IMG/VR virus record: IMGVR_UViG_3300014838_000041
Span: 1-38,613 of that record
DNA from: a virus
Taxonomy: Duplodnaviria > Caudoviricetes
Length of the DNA stretch: 38,613 nt
Direction: 5' to 3' (one strand)
In this document: piece by piece, positions 6,977-28,272 of the stretch
Position numbering within the stretch: the stretch's first letter is position 1
Layout of the letters: every line of letters starts with the position of its first letter
Translations under genes and position numbers: made by a program
Notes under the pieces: model-generated
The model's database searches: none
Told to the model about the DNA's origin: nothing
The model's input: the letters and a program-made list of their open reading frames with translations, nothing else

Positions 6977-7477
6977 ATGAAGACATTGCACCTGGAGAAG
7001 CAGATCTCCACGCTCAAGCGGGAGCGCAACGCCGCCATGAGACGCGCGAAGGCCGCCGAGCTTGCCGCGCAGAAAGACCGGGAGCGATTCAAGGAGCTGC
7101 ACGACTTGCGCACCGCCGACTTCGAGAGTCGTGACGCGCTGGAGATGGAGCTGCTGAGCCTCAAGGAGCAGATCAAGCACTACACCACGCCGAAGCCGCG
7201 CGCGAGCGTCGTCGACTGGTTCCGGACGAAGGTGATCCGCGCGCAGAACTGGCTCAAGGTCAAGCGCCTCAGCAAGGCGCGCGTCGATGCGATCACAGAG
7301 TACGGCAACGTGCCGAACCACCTGATCAGCCTCGCGCAGCGCTACTGGGAGCAGGACCTCCGGCGCCTGCGGTACGAAGCGCCGCGAGAGTTCGACCGAG
7401 ACGGTAAGCCAGCGAAGTGGAACAACAGCGGGCCCGACCTGGTGCAGCGGATCAAGATCATCCTAGGGAGAGCGTGA
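6977..7477 (+). CDS. Hypothetical coiled-coil protein
   Basis: AGGAG RBS; helical charged N-half. Confidence 0.7.
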   Translation: MKTLHLEKQISTLKRERNAAMRRAKAAELAAQKDRERFKELHDLRTADFESRDALEMELLSLKEQIKHYTTPKPRASVVDWFRTKVIRAQNWLKVKRLSKARVDAITEYGNVPNHLISLAQRYWEQDLRRLRYEAPREFDRDGKPAKWNNSGPDLVQRIKIILGRA

Positions 7478-7908
7478 TGTCCAAGAAGTTTAAACACACC
7501 GATTCGTTCAAGACCAAGGAGCGCCTGCGCTGGGAGGTGGGGCACTGGTCGAAGATCGCCGGGGACATGACGCGCGACTACAGCAACGCGCTGCGCACCC
7601 AGGAGCGCCTGAGCCTGGACAACCGCAAGCTGAACGACAAGGTGATCGCCGACGCATTCCTGATCGACGAGCTGAAGCACCAGCTCTCGCAGCAGCACAT
7701 CCAACTTTGCAACATGAGAGAGAACGCCCGTGGACAAAGCCTCGAACGACTTGCCAGCGTCGGACCACGTCATACCGGACGTGGACCCGCGACTGCTCTA
7801 CCTGAACGCACCCCTGGTGTTGGGTCATCTAGCCCGAGTATGCCGGGCAGCGGCGGACACCCTGGAGTCGGGGAAGCCAACCAAGTCCCTCCGGCTGGCG
7901 TTCGGTGA
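7477..7908 (+). CDS. Hypothetical coiled-coil protein
   Basis: TGATG coupling; low-complexity tail overlaps the next ORF. Confidence 0.6.
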   Translation: MSKKFKHTDSFKTKERLRWEVGHWSKIAGDMTRDYSNALRTQERLSLDNRKLNDKVIADAFLIDELKHQLSQQHIQLCNMRENARGQSLERLASVGPRHTGRGPATALPERTPGVGSSSPSMPGSGGHPGVGEANQVPPAGVR

Positions 7909-7987
7909 CGCCACCGCGCTGATCCTGAAGCTCCTGAAACAGTCGGACGAGAAGCCACAGATCAAATCTGTGACGCAGGTCTTGTAA
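7730..7987 (+). CDS. Hypothetical protein
   Basis: GTG start after GAGAG; overlaps upstream ORF by 179 nt. Confidence 0.45.
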   Translation: MDKASNDLPASDHVIPDVDPRLLYLNAPLVLGHLARVCRAAADTLESGKPTKSLRLAFGDATALILKLLKQSDEKPQIKSVTQVL

Positions 7988-11769: not shown

Positions 11770-12405
11770 ATGGCAGGCGCAGAACAAACCCCGGAAGCCA
11801 CCCCTGGCGATCCGGATACGGGGTATTCCGAGGAGCTAAATCTCAAGCACCTGCGCTTCCTGGCGCTGGGCGGGGGCTCGGACATCCAGATGGACATGAA
11901 GGCGTGGACGCCGCTGTCCGAGCTGATCACGCCGCTGCACCGGAAGATCGTGTTCGACCTGGCAGCCTCGGGGATCTCGAACCAGGACGTCGCGGACGTA
12001 GTCGGGATCAGCAAGGAGCGGCTGCAGACCCTGTTCGAGCAGGAGCTGAAGAGCGCGTACCAGCTGTGCCACGCATCGCTTGCGCGGAGCTTGTACTTCC
12101 AGGGGATCTCTGGGGACGGCAAGGCGGCCGAGGTCTGGCTGAAGCTCCACAATCGTTCCAAGTGGGCGACCAAGACCCAGGTGAGTGGAACTGAGGAGGG
12201 TGCGCCGATCAAGACAGAGGACCAGGGCGCAAAGAGCTTGCTCAACGAATTACTGTCGGGCATGCTAACCTCGAAGAAGCTGAAGGGTGCCGAGAAACCG
12301 GCGCCGAAGCAGCTAGAGAAGACGGACGCGAAGATGCTGGAGGCGCCAGCACCGCGCAAGAGTTCGAAACCCAAGGTGATCAAGAAAGTGAGGCAGGAAT
12401 CGTGA
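11770..12405 (+). CDS. HTH protein, probable terminase small subunit
   Basis: HTH GISNQDVADVVGIS, helical hairpin SLY...GDGKAAEVWLK, tail SGTEEGAPI. Confidence 0.55.
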   Translation: MAGAEQTPEATPGDPDTGYSEELNLKHLRFLALGGGSDIQMDMKAWTPLSELITPLHRKIVFDLAASGISNQDVADVVGISKERLQTLFEQELKSAYQLCHASLARSLYFQGISGDGKAAEVWLKLHNRSKWATKTQVSGTEEGAPIKTEDQGAKSLLNELLSGMLTSKKLKGAEKPAPKQLEKTDAKMLEAPAPRKSSKPKVIKKVRQES

Positions 12406-12749
12406 ACGAATACACCGACAACTCGGCTAAGCTCCGCGCGACCTCGGAATACACCGGCATCCCCAACAAGAGCAAGCAGTCAGCTGACTACACCCGTGGC
12501 TACACCGACGGTGTCGCCAAGGCTGCCGAGGTCAACCGCCTGCTCGACAAGCGCACCGCTGAGCTGATCAACCAGCTCTACCACGACCGCGCCCGGCTGG
12601 AGTCCGTAATCGCCAAGCACCTCAAGGTCCTGGAGTACTACGGCGACGACAGCAAGATCGACTTCGTGGACAAGGAGGCAGGGACAGAGTACGCGACCGA
12701 GTTCACTGTCTACCTGCAGTCGTTCTACGACGCGAATGTCGACGGTTGA
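12402..12749 (+). CDS. Hypothetical protein
   Basis: GTGA coupling. Confidence 0.6.
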   Translation: MNEYTDNSAKLRATSEYTGIPNKSKQSADYTRGYTDGVAKAAEVNRLLDKRTAELINQLYHDRARLESVIAKHLKVLEYYGDDSKIDFVDKEAGTEYATEFTVYLQSFYDANVDG

Positions 12750-13125
12750 CGTCAAGTTCGAGCAGCTGCCGACCGGAGCCGCCTTGAAGATCGACCAGTC
12801 CGACGGGCCCCTGATCGTCATCGAGCAAGACGGCAACGTCACGGTGACCAGGGGCCCGCACAACGAGGCTGGCCGATTGTTCTGGGAGGCTGTCAAGATC
12901 CACGGGGACACGTACCGTGAGAAGATCGCCCGCCAGGCTGCCATGATCGAGGAGCTGCGCCAGGTGGCGAGCACCCTGCAGCATGACCCGTGGCGCGAGG
13001 CAGTCAGCAACGGTTTAAACGTCTGGAACAAGATCCCCAAGGCCGCGCGCAAGACCATTACCCGTACCGACATGCACGCCGTGCTCGAAGCAGTGACACG
13101 GCTCGCGATGGAAAAAATGCAGTGA
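12736..13125 (+). CDS. Hypothetical protein (paralog of 13301..13591)
   Basis: I-x-x-DG-x-V...FWEAVKIHG motif. Confidence 0.65.
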   Translation: MSTVDVKFEQLPTGAALKIDQSDGPLIVIEQDGNVTVTRGPHNEAGRLFWEAVKIHGDTYREKIARQAAMIEELRQVASTLQHDPWREAVSNGLNVWNKIPKAARKTITRTDMHAVLEAVTRLAMEKMQ

Positions 13126-13304
13126 GATACCTGGTGACATTTCAGAAGATCCACACCCAAGAGATCGAGGCCAAGGACATCGACGCCGCGGCGCGCGTTG
13201 CCTGCGCCATCGTCCTGGGCCAGCCGAAGGACAGCGTCAAGGTCCTGAGCATCCTGCCCGGCGCCGACGCACGCCTCGGCTACAACCCGCCCGGTGCCGC
13301 ATGA
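13122..13304 (+). CDS. Small hypothetical protein
   Basis: GTGA/ATGA coupling; RYLVTF...IEAKD...A. Confidence 0.6.
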   Translation: MRYLVTFQKIHTQEIEAKDIDAAARVACAIVLGQPKDSVKVLSILPGADARLGYNPPGAA

Positions 13305-13591
13305 GCGACATGGAGCCGATCACCCTGACCGCCCCGCCCGTGGTCAACCTGCTGTCCCTCAACGACACAGACGGCAACCCCATCGTCACCATCGGCCCCG
13401 ACGGCACCGTGAGGATCTTCCAGCTCGGAGCTGAGCCCAAGGCCGCCAAGGTGTTTTGGGATGCGATCCATATCCACGGGGTGACGCTCTTCAACCAGAT
13501 CGAGAACCTGAAGCAGGACCTAAAGATCATGCGCCAGCGCCTGGAGGGCGACATCCGCGTGATCCAGAGGCTCAATAGGTCGCCCCAGTGA
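13301..13591 (+). CDS. Hypothetical protein (paralog of 12736..13125)
   Basis: I-x-x-DG-x-V...FWDAIHIHG motif. Confidence 0.65.
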   Translation: MSDMEPITLTAPPVVNLLSLNDTDGNPIVTIGPDGTVRIFQLGAEPKAAKVFWDAIHIHGVTLFNQIENLKQDLKIMRQRLEGDIRVIQRLNRSPQ

Positions 13592-14266: not shown

Positions 14267-14782
14267 GTGAGCAAAATTGTAGCGTATATTCGACAGCTGG
14301 TAGGGAACGGCAAGGCAGCCACGATTGGCATCTTCGCGTTCATCCTGCTGCTGATCTTTATGTTCCACCGCGCGCACGCCGCGGAGGTGGACGTGAGCGC
14401 TGGCAGTTCTTTTGGCACACAAGGGACTGGTCCTGTCCTGGGATTGGCCATCAGAGAGCCAATTGCGCCAAACAAGGGGCTCGACTGGGTCGCCGGAACA
14501 GACCTGTGGGGCTCGACCACGCTGCACGGTGAGACCGTCCCTAACAACTGGGACTGGCACGCAGAGCTGGAAGGGTGCAAGGGACCGGTGTGCGCAGGCA
14601 TCGGCCCGGCGTACGTACAGCGCGTCGACTCGGTCAACGGCGCGCACACGAACTTCTACCTGGGACTGCGGTGGCAGATCGCGCCGCGCGTAGCGCTCAC
14701 CCTGGGGCACATCAGCGACGCAGGCACCAGCTCACCTAACGTGGGCAGACAGGCGCTCATGCTCACCTGGAAGCTCCAATGA
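14267..14782 (+). CDS. PagL-like outer-membrane beta-barrel (lipid A deacylase homolog)
   Basis: AGGAG RBS; signal peptide ending AHA; alternating strands; C-terminal HISDAG...PNVG motif. Confidence 0.72.
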   Translation: MSKIVAYIRQLVGNGKAATIGIFAFILLLIFMFHRAHAAEVDVSAGSSFGTQGTGPVLGLAIREPIAPNKGLDWVAGTDLWGSTTLHGETVPNNWDWHAELEGCKGPVCAGIGPAYVQRVDSVNGAHTNFYLGLRWQIAPRVALTLGHISDAGTSSPNVGRQALMLTWKLQ

Positions 14783-15057
14783 GCGAGGTACCGACCAAGA
14801 CCATGTGGAGCACCATCGGCGCGGTGTTCGGCACCCAGGACGGCATGGACGTCATCTGCGTCACCGTCGCGGCCGACGGCAAGCAGTACTCGGTGAGCAT
14901 CGCAGGCCCCGAGGGCATGAAGGCGCAAGGGTTCATCGGAGCCGCGCGCGCCGCGACAGCTGTGCTGCTGCAGGCAGTGGGGGCTGACATGAAACTCGTA
15001 GGTGCCATGACCCTCGAAGACTCTGAGTTTGACACAGGAGACCAGCGTGCTAACTAG
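14779..15057 (+). CDS. Hypothetical protein
   Basis: ATGA coupling. Confidence 0.6.
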   Translation: MSEVPTKTMWSTIGAVFGTQDGMDVICVTVAADGKQYSVSIAGPEGMKAQGFIGAARAATAVLLQAVGADMKLVGAMTLEDSEFDTGDQRAN

Positions 15058-15307
15058 ACGTAGATTCTTCCAGGGACTCGGCGCGGTCGCGGTAGCTGCC
15101 CCAGTCGCCGCGAAAGCCCTGAGCCAACCGGCACCAGTGGTAGACGCATCGCCGTACCTCACCCCTAAGGACACCTGGTTCCTGAAGACCGACCACGACG
15201 TCCCAACGTACAAGCGCACCGGCAACCGGCTGATGACCGCCGCGGAGATGCGCCGCATCCTTGAGCCAGGTTTAAACGCTGCCTTCGAGTCTGTGTATGG
15301 CAAGTGA
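15047..15307 (+). CDS. Twin-arginine-signal protein containing major-capsid-derived segments
   Basis: AGGAG RBS, GTG start; TRRRFFQGLGAVAVAAPVAAKA; two segments align with the capsid protein in this window. Confidence 0.75.
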   Translation: MLTRRRFFQGLGAVAVAAPVAAKALSQPAPVVDASPYLTPKDTWFLKTDHDVPTYKRTGNRLMTAAEMRRILEPGLNAAFESVYGK

Positions 15308-15788
15308 CAAGGAAGCCCTCGACTACGCTATTGACGTACTGCGCATGCACGTCGGCGACATGTCCCCCATCTCCCCAGCACAGGTCAAGGCGTACCTGGG
15401 CGACATCTCCCGGCTGCGCTACCCGCTCCAGGTAGTAAATCGCGACATGCCCACTATCACGGTGTGCTCCCTGTGCGGCACCGAGGCCAAGAACGCCCCC
15501 GGCATTGGGCTGTACTGCCCGAACCTTGAGTGCAAGAACGCTGACGGCCCGATGCGCCGGACGTTTGCTGAGGATACCTCAGCCACTCCACGCGCGCATG
15601 AGAGCCGCGAGGCGATGGCCGCGGACATCCTCAACCGCGCGTTCTTCCAGGACTTCTGGTGCTGCGAGCACCACCCGAGCTGCTTCGACAACTTCCAGAA
15701 CCGACGCACCCACAAGTGCGGCCTGTGCACCGAGCCGCCAACCTGGTACAGCCACGGACGCATGCGTAAGCCGCTGAGCTGGGCATGA
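15297..15788 (+). CDS. Cys-rich zinc-binding hypothetical protein
   Basis: CSLCG...YCPNLEC and CCEHHPSC...CGLC. Confidence 0.65.
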   Translation: MASDKEALDYAIDVLRMHVGDMSPISPAQVKAYLGDISRLRYPLQVVNRDMPTITVCSLCGTEAKNAPGIGLYCPNLECKNADGPMRRTFAEDTSATPRAHESREAMAADILNRAFFQDFWCCEHHPSCFDNFQNRRTHKCGLCTEPPTWYSHGRMRKPLSWA

Positions 15789-15961
15789 GCGACAAGATCT
15801 CGGACGACACGCTGAAGAAGCATGAGTGCTATGGCTCTCCAAAGCGCCGCAACGGACACGCAGATTATTGCGTTTGTCCTAGGTGCGTGCCTTTGCCAGA
15901 CGATGACTCTACCCAGGCAGCCATCCCCACACCAGTCAACCCATGGAACGGTATCCCGTGA
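15785..15961 (+). CDS. Small Cys/His protein (58 aa)
   Basis: ATGA and GTGA coupling; HEC...H...CVCPRC. Confidence 0.5.
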   Translation: MSDKISDDTLKKHECYGSPKRRNGHADYCVCPRCVPLPDDDSTQAAIPTPVNPWNGIP

Positions 15962-16245
15962 CCGAAGAGACGCTAGTCAAGGCAGCCATCGCCGCGCACA
16001 ACGCACTGGATGCCTGTGGGCTCAAGGTGATTCTGTGCCGGAATGCGATGAACACCGACGCCGTGCGCCGCGACCTGTGGAACATGTGCACCTGGTTCAC
16101 CAGCGAGGCACTGTGGATGTATGACAATGGGGAAGAGACGGCCGCGCGGAACCTGGCGCTGGTGGCCAACCTACTGAGTGAGCACCTGAAGTTTGCACGT
16201 GAGCTGCGCGAGAAACCAGATGCGTGCAAGCCTCAGACCTCGTAG
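15958..16245 (+). CDS. Hypothetical protein
   Basis: ORF directly before TerL. Confidence 0.55.
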   Translation: MTEETLVKAAIAAHNALDACGLKVILCRNAMNTDAVRRDLWNMCTWFTSEALWMYDNGEETAARNLALVANLLSEHLKFARELREKPDACKPQTS

Positions 16246-17762
16246 AGATCGGCCTCCAGAAGGGGTTCAGCAAGGATCAGGTATCGTCGGCCCTCCGCGG
16301 CCTCGGTGACGATGAGGTCGAGCGCCTGGCGTGGATGGTCAAGTGGGTAGACCAGCGCCACGAGTTCCAGGTAGTCCCCGAAGGCAACTGGTCGAACTGG
16401 CTGGCGCTCGCCGGACGCGGTAGCGGCAAGACCAGACTCGGTGCCGAGTGGACCGGGATGAATGCCGCCATGGCCGTCGCAGGAGACCGTAGCCTGGTCG
16501 TGGCGCCTACCAAGGCCGATCTAAGGGACGTGTGCTTCGAGGGAGACAGCGGCCTCGTCCGTACGATCCCGAGCGCCCTGGTGCGGTACTACCACAAGTC
16601 GCCCAGCCCGCAGGTTATGCTGCACAACGGCGCGATGATCGGTGGGATCGCCGCAGCCAGCTTCGAGCGCACCCGCGGACCGCAGTGGAACCGTGCCTGG
16701 TGCGACGAGGTAGCCGCCTGGGGTGAGGACGGCAAGATCGACCCCGAAGAGGTCTGGGACACGATGGTGTTCTCGGTCCGCCTGGGCCAGGACACGCGCA
16801 TCCTTGCGACCACGACGCCGCGACCGAAGCCGCTGATCAAGATGCTGGTGAAAGACCCAGACACCGTGATCACGACCGCGACGACGATGGTCAACCTCGA
16901 CAACCTCTCGCCCGAGTTCGCGCGCCGCATCCTGCGCTACCAGGGCACGAAGATCGGTCGCCAGGAGATCTACGCCGAGCTGATCGACGCCGAAGAGGGC
17001 GGCATCATCAACCGCAGCTGGCTGCGCCTGTGGCCGCACGACAAGCCGCTGCCGATGTTCCACTACATCGTGGCGAGCATCGACCCGGCGTTCAGCGAGG
17101 AGGCGTACGACAAGAAGAAGCAGGTGACCGACCCGAGCGCGATGTCGGTGTGGGGCTGCTTCAAGCTGCCGAACGGCAAGCCCGGCGTGATGCTGCTCGA
17201 TTGCTGGGCTGAGCGGCTGGGGCTGCCTGACCTGGTCAAGAAGGTGATCAACGAGACAGACCGCACGAAGGTGCGCTACGGACAGAGCGACCGCCGACCG
17301 CTCATCTCGCCGACCAAGGGACCGCGCGCTACGATGGACGTCGGTCGACCGGTGGACCTGATCGTGATCGAGGGCAAGGCGAGCGGCAAGTCGCTGCGTC
17401 AGTACCTCGCGAAGGCTGGGATCTTCACCCAGGAGTTCAATCCTGGCATGGCCGACAAGCTCACCCGCGGGCATGTCGTCTCGCCCATCGCCAAGGATGG
17501 TATAATTTGGGTGCCTGAGTCTCCCAGCCGTCCTGGGAAGCCGATGACCTGGGCAGAACCCCTTGTCGAACAAGTCTGTAGCTACTCTGGCCCGGGCAGC
17601 GTGGTGCACGACGACCTGTACGACACGACCACCCAGGCGTGGCGCGTGATCGACTGGCAGTGGCTGCACTACCTGGAGGTCGAGGCGAGTCGCAAGAAGA
17701 AGATCGGTCCAGACACAGAAGCCCGCGCTCGGCGCGTCAACCAGAACCCATACGCAGCGTAA
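16224..17762 (+). CDS. terL: Terminase large subunit
   Basis: AGRGSGKT, RGPQWNRAWCDE, ATTTP, QEIYAE, nuclease residues SIDPA, IEGKASG, HDDLYD. Confidence 0.95.
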   Translation: MQASDLVEIGLQKGFSKDQVSSALRGLGDDEVERLAWMVKWVDQRHEFQVVPEGNWSNWLALAGRGSGKTRLGAEWTGMNAAMAVAGDRSLVVAPTKADLRDVCFEGDSGLVRTIPSALVRYYHKSPSPQVMLHNGAMIGGIAAASFERTRGPQWNRAWCDEVAAWGEDGKIDPEEVWDTMVFSVRLGQDTRILATTTPRPKPLIKMLVKDPDTVITTATTMVNLDNLSPEFARRILRYQGTKIGRQEIYAELIDAEEGGIINRSWLRLWPHDKPLPMFHYIVASIDPAFSEEAYDKKKQVTDPSAMSVWGCFKLPNGKPGVMLLDCWAERLGLPDLVKKVINETDRTKVRYGQSDRRPLISPTKGPRATMDVGRPVDLIVIEGKASGKSLRQYLAKAGIFTQEFNPGMADKLTRGHVVSPIAKDGIIWVPESPSRPGKPMTWAEPLVEQVCSYSGPGSVVHDDLYDTTTQAWRVIDWQWLHYLEVEASRKKKIGPDTEARARRVNQNPYAA

Positions 17763-21155: not shown

Positions 21156-21544
21156 TGGACCTGGAGCTGTCCCGTTGGGATAAGTGCCGTTCCACGGAGA
21201 TACATCGCAAGAAGCTGGCTGGTAAGGTGATGGGCGCGGATACGCCGCAGTACAGGGTCAGGTTGCAGGGCTGGATCGCTCGTGGCTTGCCGCTCCCAAC
21301 TCGCGTTGAACCCACTGAGTGTGAGTTGTGCCATGAGCCATTCGGAAGACACGGATCGCAGCTGGATCACTGTCACTCTACCGGCACATTTCGGGGGTGG
21401 CTGTGCAAGGGTTGCAACACCGGACTGGGGCTGCTGGGAGACGATCTGGAGTCCATAAAGTTGGCGCTCGCGTACCTGCGCAGACACCAAATTGAGACGC
21501 GCGTCAAAGAATCTGAACCATCGGAGTCAATCGGTCATGACTAG
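21152..21544 (+). CDS. Endonuclease VII-family nuclease (possible homing endonuclease)
   Basis: CELC...LDHCHSTGTFRGWLCKGCNTGLGLLGD. Confidence 0.88.
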   Translation: MMDLELSRWDKCRSTEIHRKKLAGKVMGADTPQYRVRLQGWIARGLPLPTRVEPTECELCHEPFGRHGSQLDHCHSTGTFRGWLCKGCNTGLGLLGDDLESIKLALAYLRRHQIETRVKESEPSESIGHD

Positions 21545-22007
21545 TCTTACCAAGCTCAAGGTTTCTACGATTCTCGATCAAACGCTGGACGAGGCGTTCC
21601 CAGCCGTCGACCCAGGCACCGAGCCGTTCGGGTCGCTGGTTCTCCTGCAGATCAAGGCTGCGGCCACCAAGACCAAGGGCGGGCTGATCCTCAGCGACAA
21701 CACCATCGAGACCGAGGCCGACAACACGAAGGTCGCCAAGGTGCTCGCATGCGGGCCGCTGGCGTTCCACGACCGCGCGACCAAGACCCCGTGGCCCGAA
21801 GGCGCCTGGTGCCAGCCCGGTGAGTTCGTCCGCATCGGCCTGTACGGTGGCGACCGCTGGCGCGTCTGCTACGACACGGTCAAGGTCAAGGACCGCGACG
21901 GCCGCGTGATCCGCGAGCAGAAGGTCTACGCCGAGTTTGCGCTCCTCGAAGACCTGGTGCTCAAGGGCCGCGTGAAGGACCCGCTGGCAGCCCTGGCGTT
22001 CATCTGA
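21537..22007 (+). CDS. groES: GroES-like co-chaperonin
   Basis: PFGSLVLL, KTKGGLIL mobile loop, VLACGPLAF, WCQPGEFV. Confidence 0.85.
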   Translation: MTSLTKLKVSTILDQTLDEAFPAVDPGTEPFGSLVLLQIKAAATKTKGGLILSDNTIETEADNTKVAKVLACGPLAFHDRATKTPWPEGAWCQPGEFVRIGLYGGDRWRVCYDTVKVKDRDGRVIREQKVYAEFALLEDLVLKGRVKDPLAALAFI

Positions 22008-27354: not shown

Positions 27355-28272
27355 ATGGCTGTCCCAATGCGAAGTACAGACTTCCGCAGCATCGTTGAGC
27401 CAATCCTCAACGAAGAGTTCGACGGAGTCTACGAGCAACGCGCAGACGAGTGGAACCAGGTCTTCAAGCAGATCACCGGTATCCCGCGTGCCTACCATGA
27501 AGAGCCCGTGCTCTTCGGCTTCAGCGCCGCTCCGCTGCTGCCTGACGGTCAACCGGTCACGTACCAAGCTGGCGGCCAGCTGTTCGTGTACCGCTACTTC
27601 TACCAGGTCTACGGCCTAGCGTTCGCGCTGACCAAGGTCCTTGTCGAAGACGGTGACCACATCCGTATCGGTGCGACGTACTCGCGCCACCTCGCTCAGT
27701 CCCTGATCGAGACCAAGGAAACCCTGTGCGCCAACGTGATCAACCGAGCCTTCAACAGCTCGTTCATCGGTGGTGACGGTGTCTCCCTCGTCAACGCAGC
27801 TCACCCGATCCAGAACGCGGGTTCGTTCAGCAACATCCTCGGCACAGCGGCAGCGCTCAGCCAGACGTCGCTCGAACAGATCCTCATCCAGATCCGCGGC
27901 GCGGTCGACAACAACGGCAAGAAGATCCGCCTTGAGCCCAAGAAGCTCGTCGTTGCCCCAAGCAACGTGTTCCAGGCTGAAGTCCTGCTGAAGTCGGTCC
28001 TCCGTACCGGCACAACCAACAACGACATCAACCCCATCAAGTCGATGGGTCTCCTGTCGGGTGGTCAAGCGAACCTGTCGCGTCTGACCAGCAACACCGC
28101 CTGGTTCGTCCAGACGGACGCCCCAGAGGGCCTGAAGCTGGTGAACCGCCGCTCCCTGCAGAAGAGCATGGAAGGCGACTTCGAGACCGACTCGATCCGC
28201 TACAAGGCCACCGAGCGCTACGCCGTAGGTTTCACAGACCCACGCGCGCTCTTCGGCACCCCGGGACTCTGA
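27355..28272 (+). CDS. Major capsid protein (Mu gpT-like family)
   Basis: EPILNEEF, TKE-x-x-x-ANVINRAF, GGDGVSL...HP, PKKLVVAP, NDIN, AWFVQTD, GDFETDSIRYKATERY. Confidence 0.92.
   Translation: MAVPMRSTDFRSIVEPILNEEFDGVYEQRADEWNQVFKQITGIPRAYHEEPVLFGFSAAPLLPDGQPVTYQAGGQLFVYRYFYQVYGLAFALTKVLVEDGDHIRIGATYSRHLAQSLIETKETLCANVINRAFNSSFIGGDGVSLVNAAHPIQNAGSFSNILGTAAALSQTSLEQILIQIRGAVDNNGKKIRLEPKKLVVAPSNVFQAEVLLKSVLRTGTTNNDINPIKSMGLLSGGQANLSRLTSNTAWFVQTDAPEGLKLVNRRSLQKSMEGDFETDSIRYKATERYAVGFTDPRALFGTPGL

Follow-up and report, generated by a model that had tools for sequence, protein, structure and literature searches.

What use could a tailed phage have for a short gene, set among its packaging functions, that joins an export-type leader to fragments of a capsid protein in swapped order? 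The question is raised by an 86-residue open reading frame (ORF), here called the mini-gene, in the virus record IMGVR_UViG_3300014838_000041 (Caudoviricetes), a linear record of 38.6 kb, 67% complete, the whole of which was analyzed and is referred to as the window. At the level of sequence, it was confirmed as an intact gene, whose product begins with a twin-arginine translocation (Tat)-type leader and continues with a segment corresponding to major capsid protein (MCP) residues ~236-268 and then with one corresponding to MCP residues 5-26. It is an optional gene, located in a variable block between the genes for the small and large terminase subunits (terS and terL). An earlier note, made from the letters of this DNA, had described the ORF, its translation, its own AGGAG ribosome-binding site and a distance of ~12 kb from the capsid gene; all of these were reproduced, the distance being 12,048 nt.

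Gapless alignment to the window's own MCP returned the identities given in that note, 6/12 for the piece from the C-terminal region (MCP 244-255) and 10/22 for the N-terminal piece (MCP 5-26), in reverse order, and shuffled sequences seldom scored as well: p=0.0028 for the former (5000 shuffles), 0/5000 for the latter and 0/3000 for both jointly. Against a profile of 157 capsids, piece 1 scored 26.2 bits and piece 2 31.1 bits (each 0/400 shuffles), and the sum of 57.3 bits exceeded the maximum of 43.6 among 10,719 real frames of 60-200 aa from 172 related loci. Profile-profile comparison by hhalign gave piece 1 a probability of 95.6 (E 1.3e-8). The capsid pieces sit in coding frames and rank as the top two among the window's 537 frames. 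Chance resemblance to a capsid was rejected on the shuffles, the 157-capsid profile and the real frames, and the claims of a capsid origin, a swapped order and a Tat-type leader were supported, the last by TIGR01409. The extent proposed for piece 1 proved too short, since local alignment to capsids of other clades covers residues ~30-60, so that sequence of capsid origin makes up nearly everything that follows the leader. No general excess of capsid snippets was seen in the flanking DNA, where matches of at least 24 bits numbered 7 in real and 6 in reversed sequence (2.28 million aa), and single pieces under ~25 bits thus count by position alone.

The twin-arginine (RR) motif of the leader reads T-R-R-R-F-F-Q, the Tat consensus being S/T-R-R-x-F-L-K. 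The leader scores 18.9 bits with TIGR01409 (cut-off 16.7) and 14.8 with Pfam TAT_signal, missing the gathering cut-off of 22.7. Its h-region is moderately hydrophobic (best 13-residue Kyte-Doolittle mean 1.91), and the A-x-A at residues 22-24 is weak evidence of a cleavage site, because the leader region is rich in Ala. In the structure model of the mini-protein (predicted template modeling score, pTM, 0.30; predicted local distance difference test, pLDDT, 65; 12-row alignment), leader helices are followed by a long unstructured middle, and the helix at residues 65-84 is the sole one after the leader. The MCP model (pLDDT 82, pTM 0.79), the structural matches of which are HK97-fold capsids and encapsulins, has strands near the source of piece 1 at residues 238-240, 251-254 and 260-275; MCP ~236-268 presumably comprises the last strands of the A-domain and the hinge, after HK97 anatomy. 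With its 86 aa, its reversed order and no Pfam or PHROG capsid match, the mini-protein has no full-length colinear HK97 fold. A PHROG search gave it 0 matches, a search of solved structures three, to the leader only, and a feature and structure atlas gave unnamed viral clusters as the top feature matches (0.92) and no structure match above its naming bar. PADLOC, whose models cover defence and not anti-defence, had 0 matches for any of the eight block proteins tested. An assembly artefact is unlikely: contigs of another study span 14847-15161 and 15174-15561, and a related record (G001), which may not be independent, holds the identical gene. A longer, fused form of the gene was sought among 1443 candidates in a weak search, and none appeared at E<=10.

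Features of the mini-gene, its surroundings and the capsid gene in the window
Feature	Position	Strand	Basis or remarks
terS, left edge of accessory block	11770..12405	+	phrog_309, E 3e-5; conserved in 7/7 terminase-relative loci tested
PagL-like outer-membrane enzyme gene (context only)	14267..14782	+	PF09411, 30.1 bits vs cut-off 23; two ORFs upstream of mini-gene
AGGAG ribosome-binding site	15036..15040	+	sequence; 6 nt 5' of GTG start
Mini-gene, 86 aa	15047..15307	+	11-nt overlaps with upstream ORF (14779-15057) and downstream ORF (15297-15788)
Tat-type leader, residues 1-24	15047..15118	+	TIGR01409 over cut-off, Pfam TAT_signal below cut-off; cleavage predicted at A-x-A, 22-24
Capsid piece 1, residues ~30-60	15134..15226	+	matches MCP ~236-268; core residues 37-49 (15155-15193) match MCP 243-255
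Capsid piece 2, residues 63-84	15233..15298	+	matches MCP 5-26, N-terminal arm helix; helix predicted at 65-84
163-aa accessory gene, Cys/His modules, no Tat leader	15297..15788	+	residues 102-116 (15600-15644) match MCP 119-133, end of long spine helix
terL, right edge of accessory block	16224..17762	+	
MCP, HK97 fold, Mu gpT-like / Phage_capsid_4	27355..28272	+	sequence families and structure model
MCP regions matched by copied pieces	27367-27432, 27709-27753, 28081-28119	+	

The window's gene belongs to a family. A scan of 1.84 billion representatives yielded 7 matches at E<=0.001, of which 6 were homologs (39-53% identity) and one was a truncated copy of the query itself, and a profile search, in which 7992 candidates were scored, yielded 12 matches, 6 of them new; with a near-duplicate from a cluster look-up (P0011) left out, 12 distinct homologs are counted. 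All 12 contain the MCP 243-253 piece and 11 the RR leader, the spacing from RR to piece 1 being 31-42 residues across the family; P0006, which is without the RR leader, may be mis-started. The leader and both swapped pieces are kept in 6 of the 12; the N-terminal-arm piece comes next after the MCP 243-253 piece, at the 95% shuffle level, in P0005-P0009 and P0012. Further pieces occur in various orders, MCP 100-122 in two homologs, 158-203 in three and 274-305 in four (P0009, P0012, P0016 and P0017), while P0013 contains MCP 243-305 whole. The first 52 residues of P0013, encoded on a 766-bp contig, are identical to those of P0008, and what follows is an intact C-terminus like that of capsids in the window's clade; P0013 is a possible recombinant or assembly chimera. 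The tails are made of conserved capsid motifs in 13/13 proteins mapped, and capsid-invariant residues are kept although the members share 28-54% overall identity; W250 is invariant in 52 capsids (alignment A3) and in all 12 mini-proteins (alignment A2). A signature that appeared specific to the mini-proteins ([YF]xTSxxAW in 9/12 of them vs 2/157 capsids; its LK form in 9/12 vs 3/157) fell on a targeted scan, in which S at the fourth place was found in 4/120 loci: the LK form is not mini-specific, since it is present in 119 of the 120 loci in a capsid-like context.

Which capsids the pieces resemble was assessed by ranking 226 capsids for their fit. The window's own MCP ranked 145/226 for piece 1 (37 vs best 66), a rank inflated by the ~68 capsids that had been gathered with the piece-1 motif, and 49/226 for piece 2 (51 vs best 56). 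In an earlier set of 158 capsids it ranked 74 for piece 1, and the medians of its own clade vs the others were 31 vs 47 for this piece; for piece 2, they were 52 vs 32. The letters of piece 2 are mixed, M5, R11 and I13 being those of the window's own clade and L14 and G17 those of other clades: G17 occurs in 151/151 other capsids and in 0/75 of the own clade, and R11 in 75/75 own-clade capsids. For this residue comparison, two of the eight mini-protein rows (P0010 and P0012), which were out of register, were left out. The earlier impression that YLT and EPGL are closer to other capsids is thus borne out by the piece-1 rank and the distribution of G17, but the single foreign donor at which it hinted is not established, because the N-terminal piece carries own-clade letters and a long branch leads to that clade (1.33 changes per site; 29/226 rows used). 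A recent copy of the window's own capsid gene was rejected, as DNA identity is 24/39 and 38/66 and other MCPs match better than the window's own. In a second carrier genome (G051), the carrier's own capsid ranked 206, 1 and 133 of 226 for the pieces of its member, P0017, the longest of which fits the window's clade best; the two pieces of P0009 jointly fit the window's capsid best (rank 1/226). Most pieces fit other capsids better in both readable carriers, and are therefore old or foreign copies. For the window's pieces, an old copy from the stem of its own clade, a hybrid or a foreign donor would all fit the sequences.

The gene is rare as well as optional. A family-profile search of 57 related records gave a full-length match in G001 alone, where the gene is identical at the DNA level. 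The mini-gene was found in 0/7 terminase-relative loci, no member occurred in the 120 loci of the motif scan or in the bacterial genomes searched, and 50,697 cultured-phage records held no match to the family, such searches returning capsid genes or nothing; for P0009, no match was found in the viral contigs searched. The second carrier, G051, is 97% complete and bears P0017 shortly upstream of a portal-like gene. There, P0017 is directly followed by a second Tat-leader mini-gene with an MCP 141-153 piece (26.0 bits, 0/300 shuffles), the pair lying at L216 9875-10617; the product of the second also has a Cys-rich tail.

Capsid pieces and leaders are not confined to the mini-gene. In the gene that overlaps its end, the MCP 119-133 piece scored 24.4 bits (0/1000 shuffles), second best of the 537 window frames, and since ~0.15 chance matches are expected per window at that score, what speaks for it is its adjacency, together with the occurrence of this piece in homologs from related genomes (G027, G030, G031). 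The piece stands just before a Cys/His module, and the two are found together in three related records (L090 6993-7190, L093 5866-6063, L094 5705-5902), the module occurring alone in a fourth (L087 4500-4610); the phages that have kept the piece have terminases of 65-66% identity. Other accessory genes carry further pieces. Pre-terminase genes at L090 7515-7967 and L093 6227-6721, distant kin of the window gene at 15943-16245, contain MCP 174-195 at 29.9 and 24.1 bits; the former score was the best of 28,183 frames, and one reversed control reached at least 28. The leaderless pre-terminase genes L087 7584-7949 and L086 7542-7937 end in an MCP 243-253-like piece (18.1 and 17.8 bits, p 0.010 and 0.027). 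A tblastn match in L087 that ran through stop codons was discarded, as it amounted to no more than a short stretch at the end of a different gene. Conversely, small genes with Tat-like leaders occur in the same block of G027, G030 and G031 (L090 5975-6178, L093 4865-5050, L094 4702-4914); their short tails differ between the records and have no capsid or other-gene match within 2.5 Mb of loci. In G031, a frame on the minus strand (L213 509-1024) ends near a weak MCP 243-253-like stretch (15.8 bits), and does not resemble a real gene. As leaders and capsid pieces are found apart in the block, they behave as separate, recombining modules.

A strain present in the contigs of another study bears 6 listed changes in the mini-gene, of which 4 are synonymous and two are G12A and S82A; all spare RR, W44 and P74. 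At a neutral synonymous share of 0.258, p is 0.042, and it rises to 0.124 should two unlisted changes close to the ends of contigs be non-synonymous. Late expression is suggested by the position of the gene between terS and terL, with overlapping genes on both sides. One RNA run (X6) yielded a contig over 15171-15420 without differences and another (X8) none, a contig being no proof of transcription, and a promoter and terminator scan was uninformative (2 found vs 3.0 expected; 16 vs 14.2).

These properties bring us back to the function of the gene. The explanation that we favor, while holding it only tentatively, is that the mini-protein is a late-made bait, to which a capsid sensor of the host would bind and which would pass that sensor on to the Tat exporter. 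The protein would be made late, together with the packaging genes, when capsid is produced; its two conserved capsid peptides would capture a protein with which the host recognizes capsids through short motifs, and the leader would deliver the bound sensor to the exporter, thereby removing it from the cytoplasm. In the clade of this phage's capsid the family-wide motif has changed (Y243 to R, G17 to I), and a bait that retains it could prevail over the real capsid in competition for the sensor; the leader would answer the risk that a free capsid peptide triggers the sensor. Late expression, real engagement of the Tat system, binding of a partner, its identity as a defence sensor and its co-export are all steps that we infer, beyond the anatomy that was observed. 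In a broader and similarly doubtful form of the proposal, phages might assemble putative baits from reshuffled capsid peptides and Tat leaders, the exporter of folded complexes expelling capsid sensors or rival capsid subunits, and the pieces might be refreshed by recombination with capsid genes. Published findings speak for the bait reading. The capsid is a known trigger of defences including CapRel and Lit (PMC13728456); Lit and CapRel detect the MCP via short motifs, and Avs7/8/10 bind its A-domain, wrapping the fold (bioRxiv 10.64898/2026.01.04.697583); Thoeris senses the capsid and needs its E-loop and P-loop (PMC12578639). In FLI-TRAP, a Tat-tagged binder co-exports a bound partner that has no signal of its own (PMC13111641).

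Several observations weigh against a bait. The mini-protein is mostly unstructured in its model, with one tail helix, whereas Avs7/8/10 need a broad fold-shaped surface and Thoeris the E-loop and P-loop, which such a product does not provide; only motif-reading sensors are therefore plausible targets. MCP 39-99, which contains the E-loop, is copied in no family member, and the copied MCP regions are marginally, not clearly, more conserved than the uncopied ones (rho 0.10, p 0.09). The constancy of the first piece is in part ascertainment, because the searches started from the query's own motifs. The TIGR01409 cut-off was passed by 2/7 members tested, and Pfam TAT_signal, although giving E<=1 in 9/14 proteins, passed its cut-off in 0/14. 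Capsid pieces in leaderless genes, and Tat-like leaders on tails that match no capsid, point in the same direction. The evidence for purifying selection on the mini-gene is suggestive, but weak (p 0.04-0.12, one strain).

Less probable than a bait is that the gene is tolerated mosaic scrap, in a block that gains capsid fragments by recombination, with pieces that have no job and a Tat leader that either neutralizes such scraps or is a common mobile 5' module. Piece order and origin do vary between members, P0013 looks like recombination at a shared piece (unless its short contig is an assembly chimera), leaderless accessory genes bear capsid pieces as well, and the gene is rare both in the motif loci and among cultured phages. 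Against scrap stand the in-frame position of the pieces in real ORFs, the capsid-invariant residues retained at such low overall identity, the constant RR-to-piece spacing, the excess of synonymous changes in a second strain and the retention of the spine-helix piece in phages with diverged terminases. In 2/2 carriers of known genome the pieces fit the carrier's capsid poorly, which would suit an agent directed at rival phages. By strand or N-arm helix swap, its pieces would attach to the capsid or scaffold subunits of co-infecting phages from other clades, and its leader would draw these off to the membrane or periplasm, sparing the carrier's own diverged capsid. The best fit of P0009, which comes from another source, to the window's capsid is in keeping with this, as is the capsid homolog Ccm of Staphylococcus aureus pathogenicity islands (SaPI), which is reported to redirect helper assembly (PMC8569155). 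Such poisoning of rivals is nevertheless unlikely: the window's piece 2 and the downstream piece fit its own clade best (medians 52 and 48), which implies a risk of self-poisoning in a late operon, the carrier of P0009 may simply be a relative of the window phage, and the poor fit follows from an old copy as well, no targeting being needed.

A further possibility, more unlikely still, is that the gene acts through its leader, with a product that occupies TatBC or the membrane, altering the host envelope as its PagL-like neighbor may do, with the pieces as filler or active in the periplasm. The Tat-like genes of G027, G030 and G031, whose tails match no capsid, and the presence of the PagL-like gene itself would agree with such a role, but it leaves the conserved capsid motifs in the tails of all 13 proteins mapped without explanation. 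To readings other than these four we attach very little probability. A bait is thus preferred over the alternatives, each of which we consider less probable.

Compared with known systems, the mini-protein shares with Tat substrates (TIGR01409, PF10518) the RR-x-F-F motif, a hydrophobic stretch and A-x-A, and differs from them, and from FLI-TRAP constructs, in that its passenger consists of short, largely unstructured, phage-encoded capsid peptides, the export of which is predicted from sequence. The family from which its pieces derive is that of the Phage_capsid_4 or Mu gpT-like MCPs (PF10124, PF25209), with members in Caulobacter phage RW (79% identical), Pelagibacter phage HTVC023P and Roseobacter CRP-902; unlike HK97-fold MCPs, the mini-protein has ~55 of 305 residues, out of order and without that fold, and cannot be a capsid subunit. 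Proteins of the Ccm type are near full-length capsid homologs with the complete fold and are not known to bear an export leader. The mini-protein resembles Ccm, described as a satellite's homolog of a capsid protein (PMC8569155), as a capsid derivative that could be used to interfere with the head assembly of another element and differs in being an 86-aa mosaic with an export-type leader, carried by a phage rather than a satellite and far from full length. Among capsid-sensing defences, Lit, CapRel SJ46, Avs7/8/10 and Thoeris are candidate targets of a capsid bait, Lit and CapRel being the motif-reading ones, and the parts of the accounts of these systems that were consulted describe no Tat-tagged or fragment decoy. 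No report of a family combining a Tat leader with scrambled capsid pieces was found in the literature covered, which did not extend to subscription journals and bioRxiv supplements.

As for the genomic setting, the window encodes terminase, portal, a 305-aa capsid protein (Mu gpT-like / Phage_capsid_4), SU10-type adaptors, a GroES-like protein, a GH108 endolysin and holins, and a Gram-negative host is suggested by the lysis genes and the PagL-like gene. Among cultured phages, Caulobacter phage RW and three of its kin have the closest MCPs (78.7% identity). The PagL-like gene is preceded by an AGGAG of its own; its product, a predicted lipid A deacylase whose N-terminus is hydrophobic, may serve to remodel the outer membrane of the host. 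The GroES-like co-chaperonin gene (21492-22007) lies between the portal and capsid genes and is annotated in Caulobacter phage RW too. Within the accessory block, the genes at 12736-13125 and 13301-13591 look like paralogs, because both match one and the same gene in 6 related loci. In two of the related loci, terL (L093 6708-9095 and L094 6708-9095) encodes 795 aa vs ~530 in its kin, with an HNH-like ORF nested in another frame at 7403-7969; the extra length may reflect an insertion, for instance of an intein. One 111-kb record (L055, G015) has two capsid genes ~55 kb apart, and is perhaps a concatemer.

The present work describes a gene family, joining an export leader to scrambled capsid pieces, that fits no class described in the literature searched. 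New at this locus are the poor match between the pieces and the capsid of their carrier, seen in two genomes, a neighboring gene that has a third piece but no leader, and a member that may be a recombinant. If the genes are scrap, they show that new genes are built from fragments of structural genes in the accessory block. If, instead, the mini-protein is a bait with built-in disposal, it would represent a new route of counter-defence or of phage-phage conflict, acting by the relocation of proteins. The copied pieces would then point to capsid epitopes read by sensors that are yet to be described, and the set of bait pieces would map which capsid surfaces are being watched.
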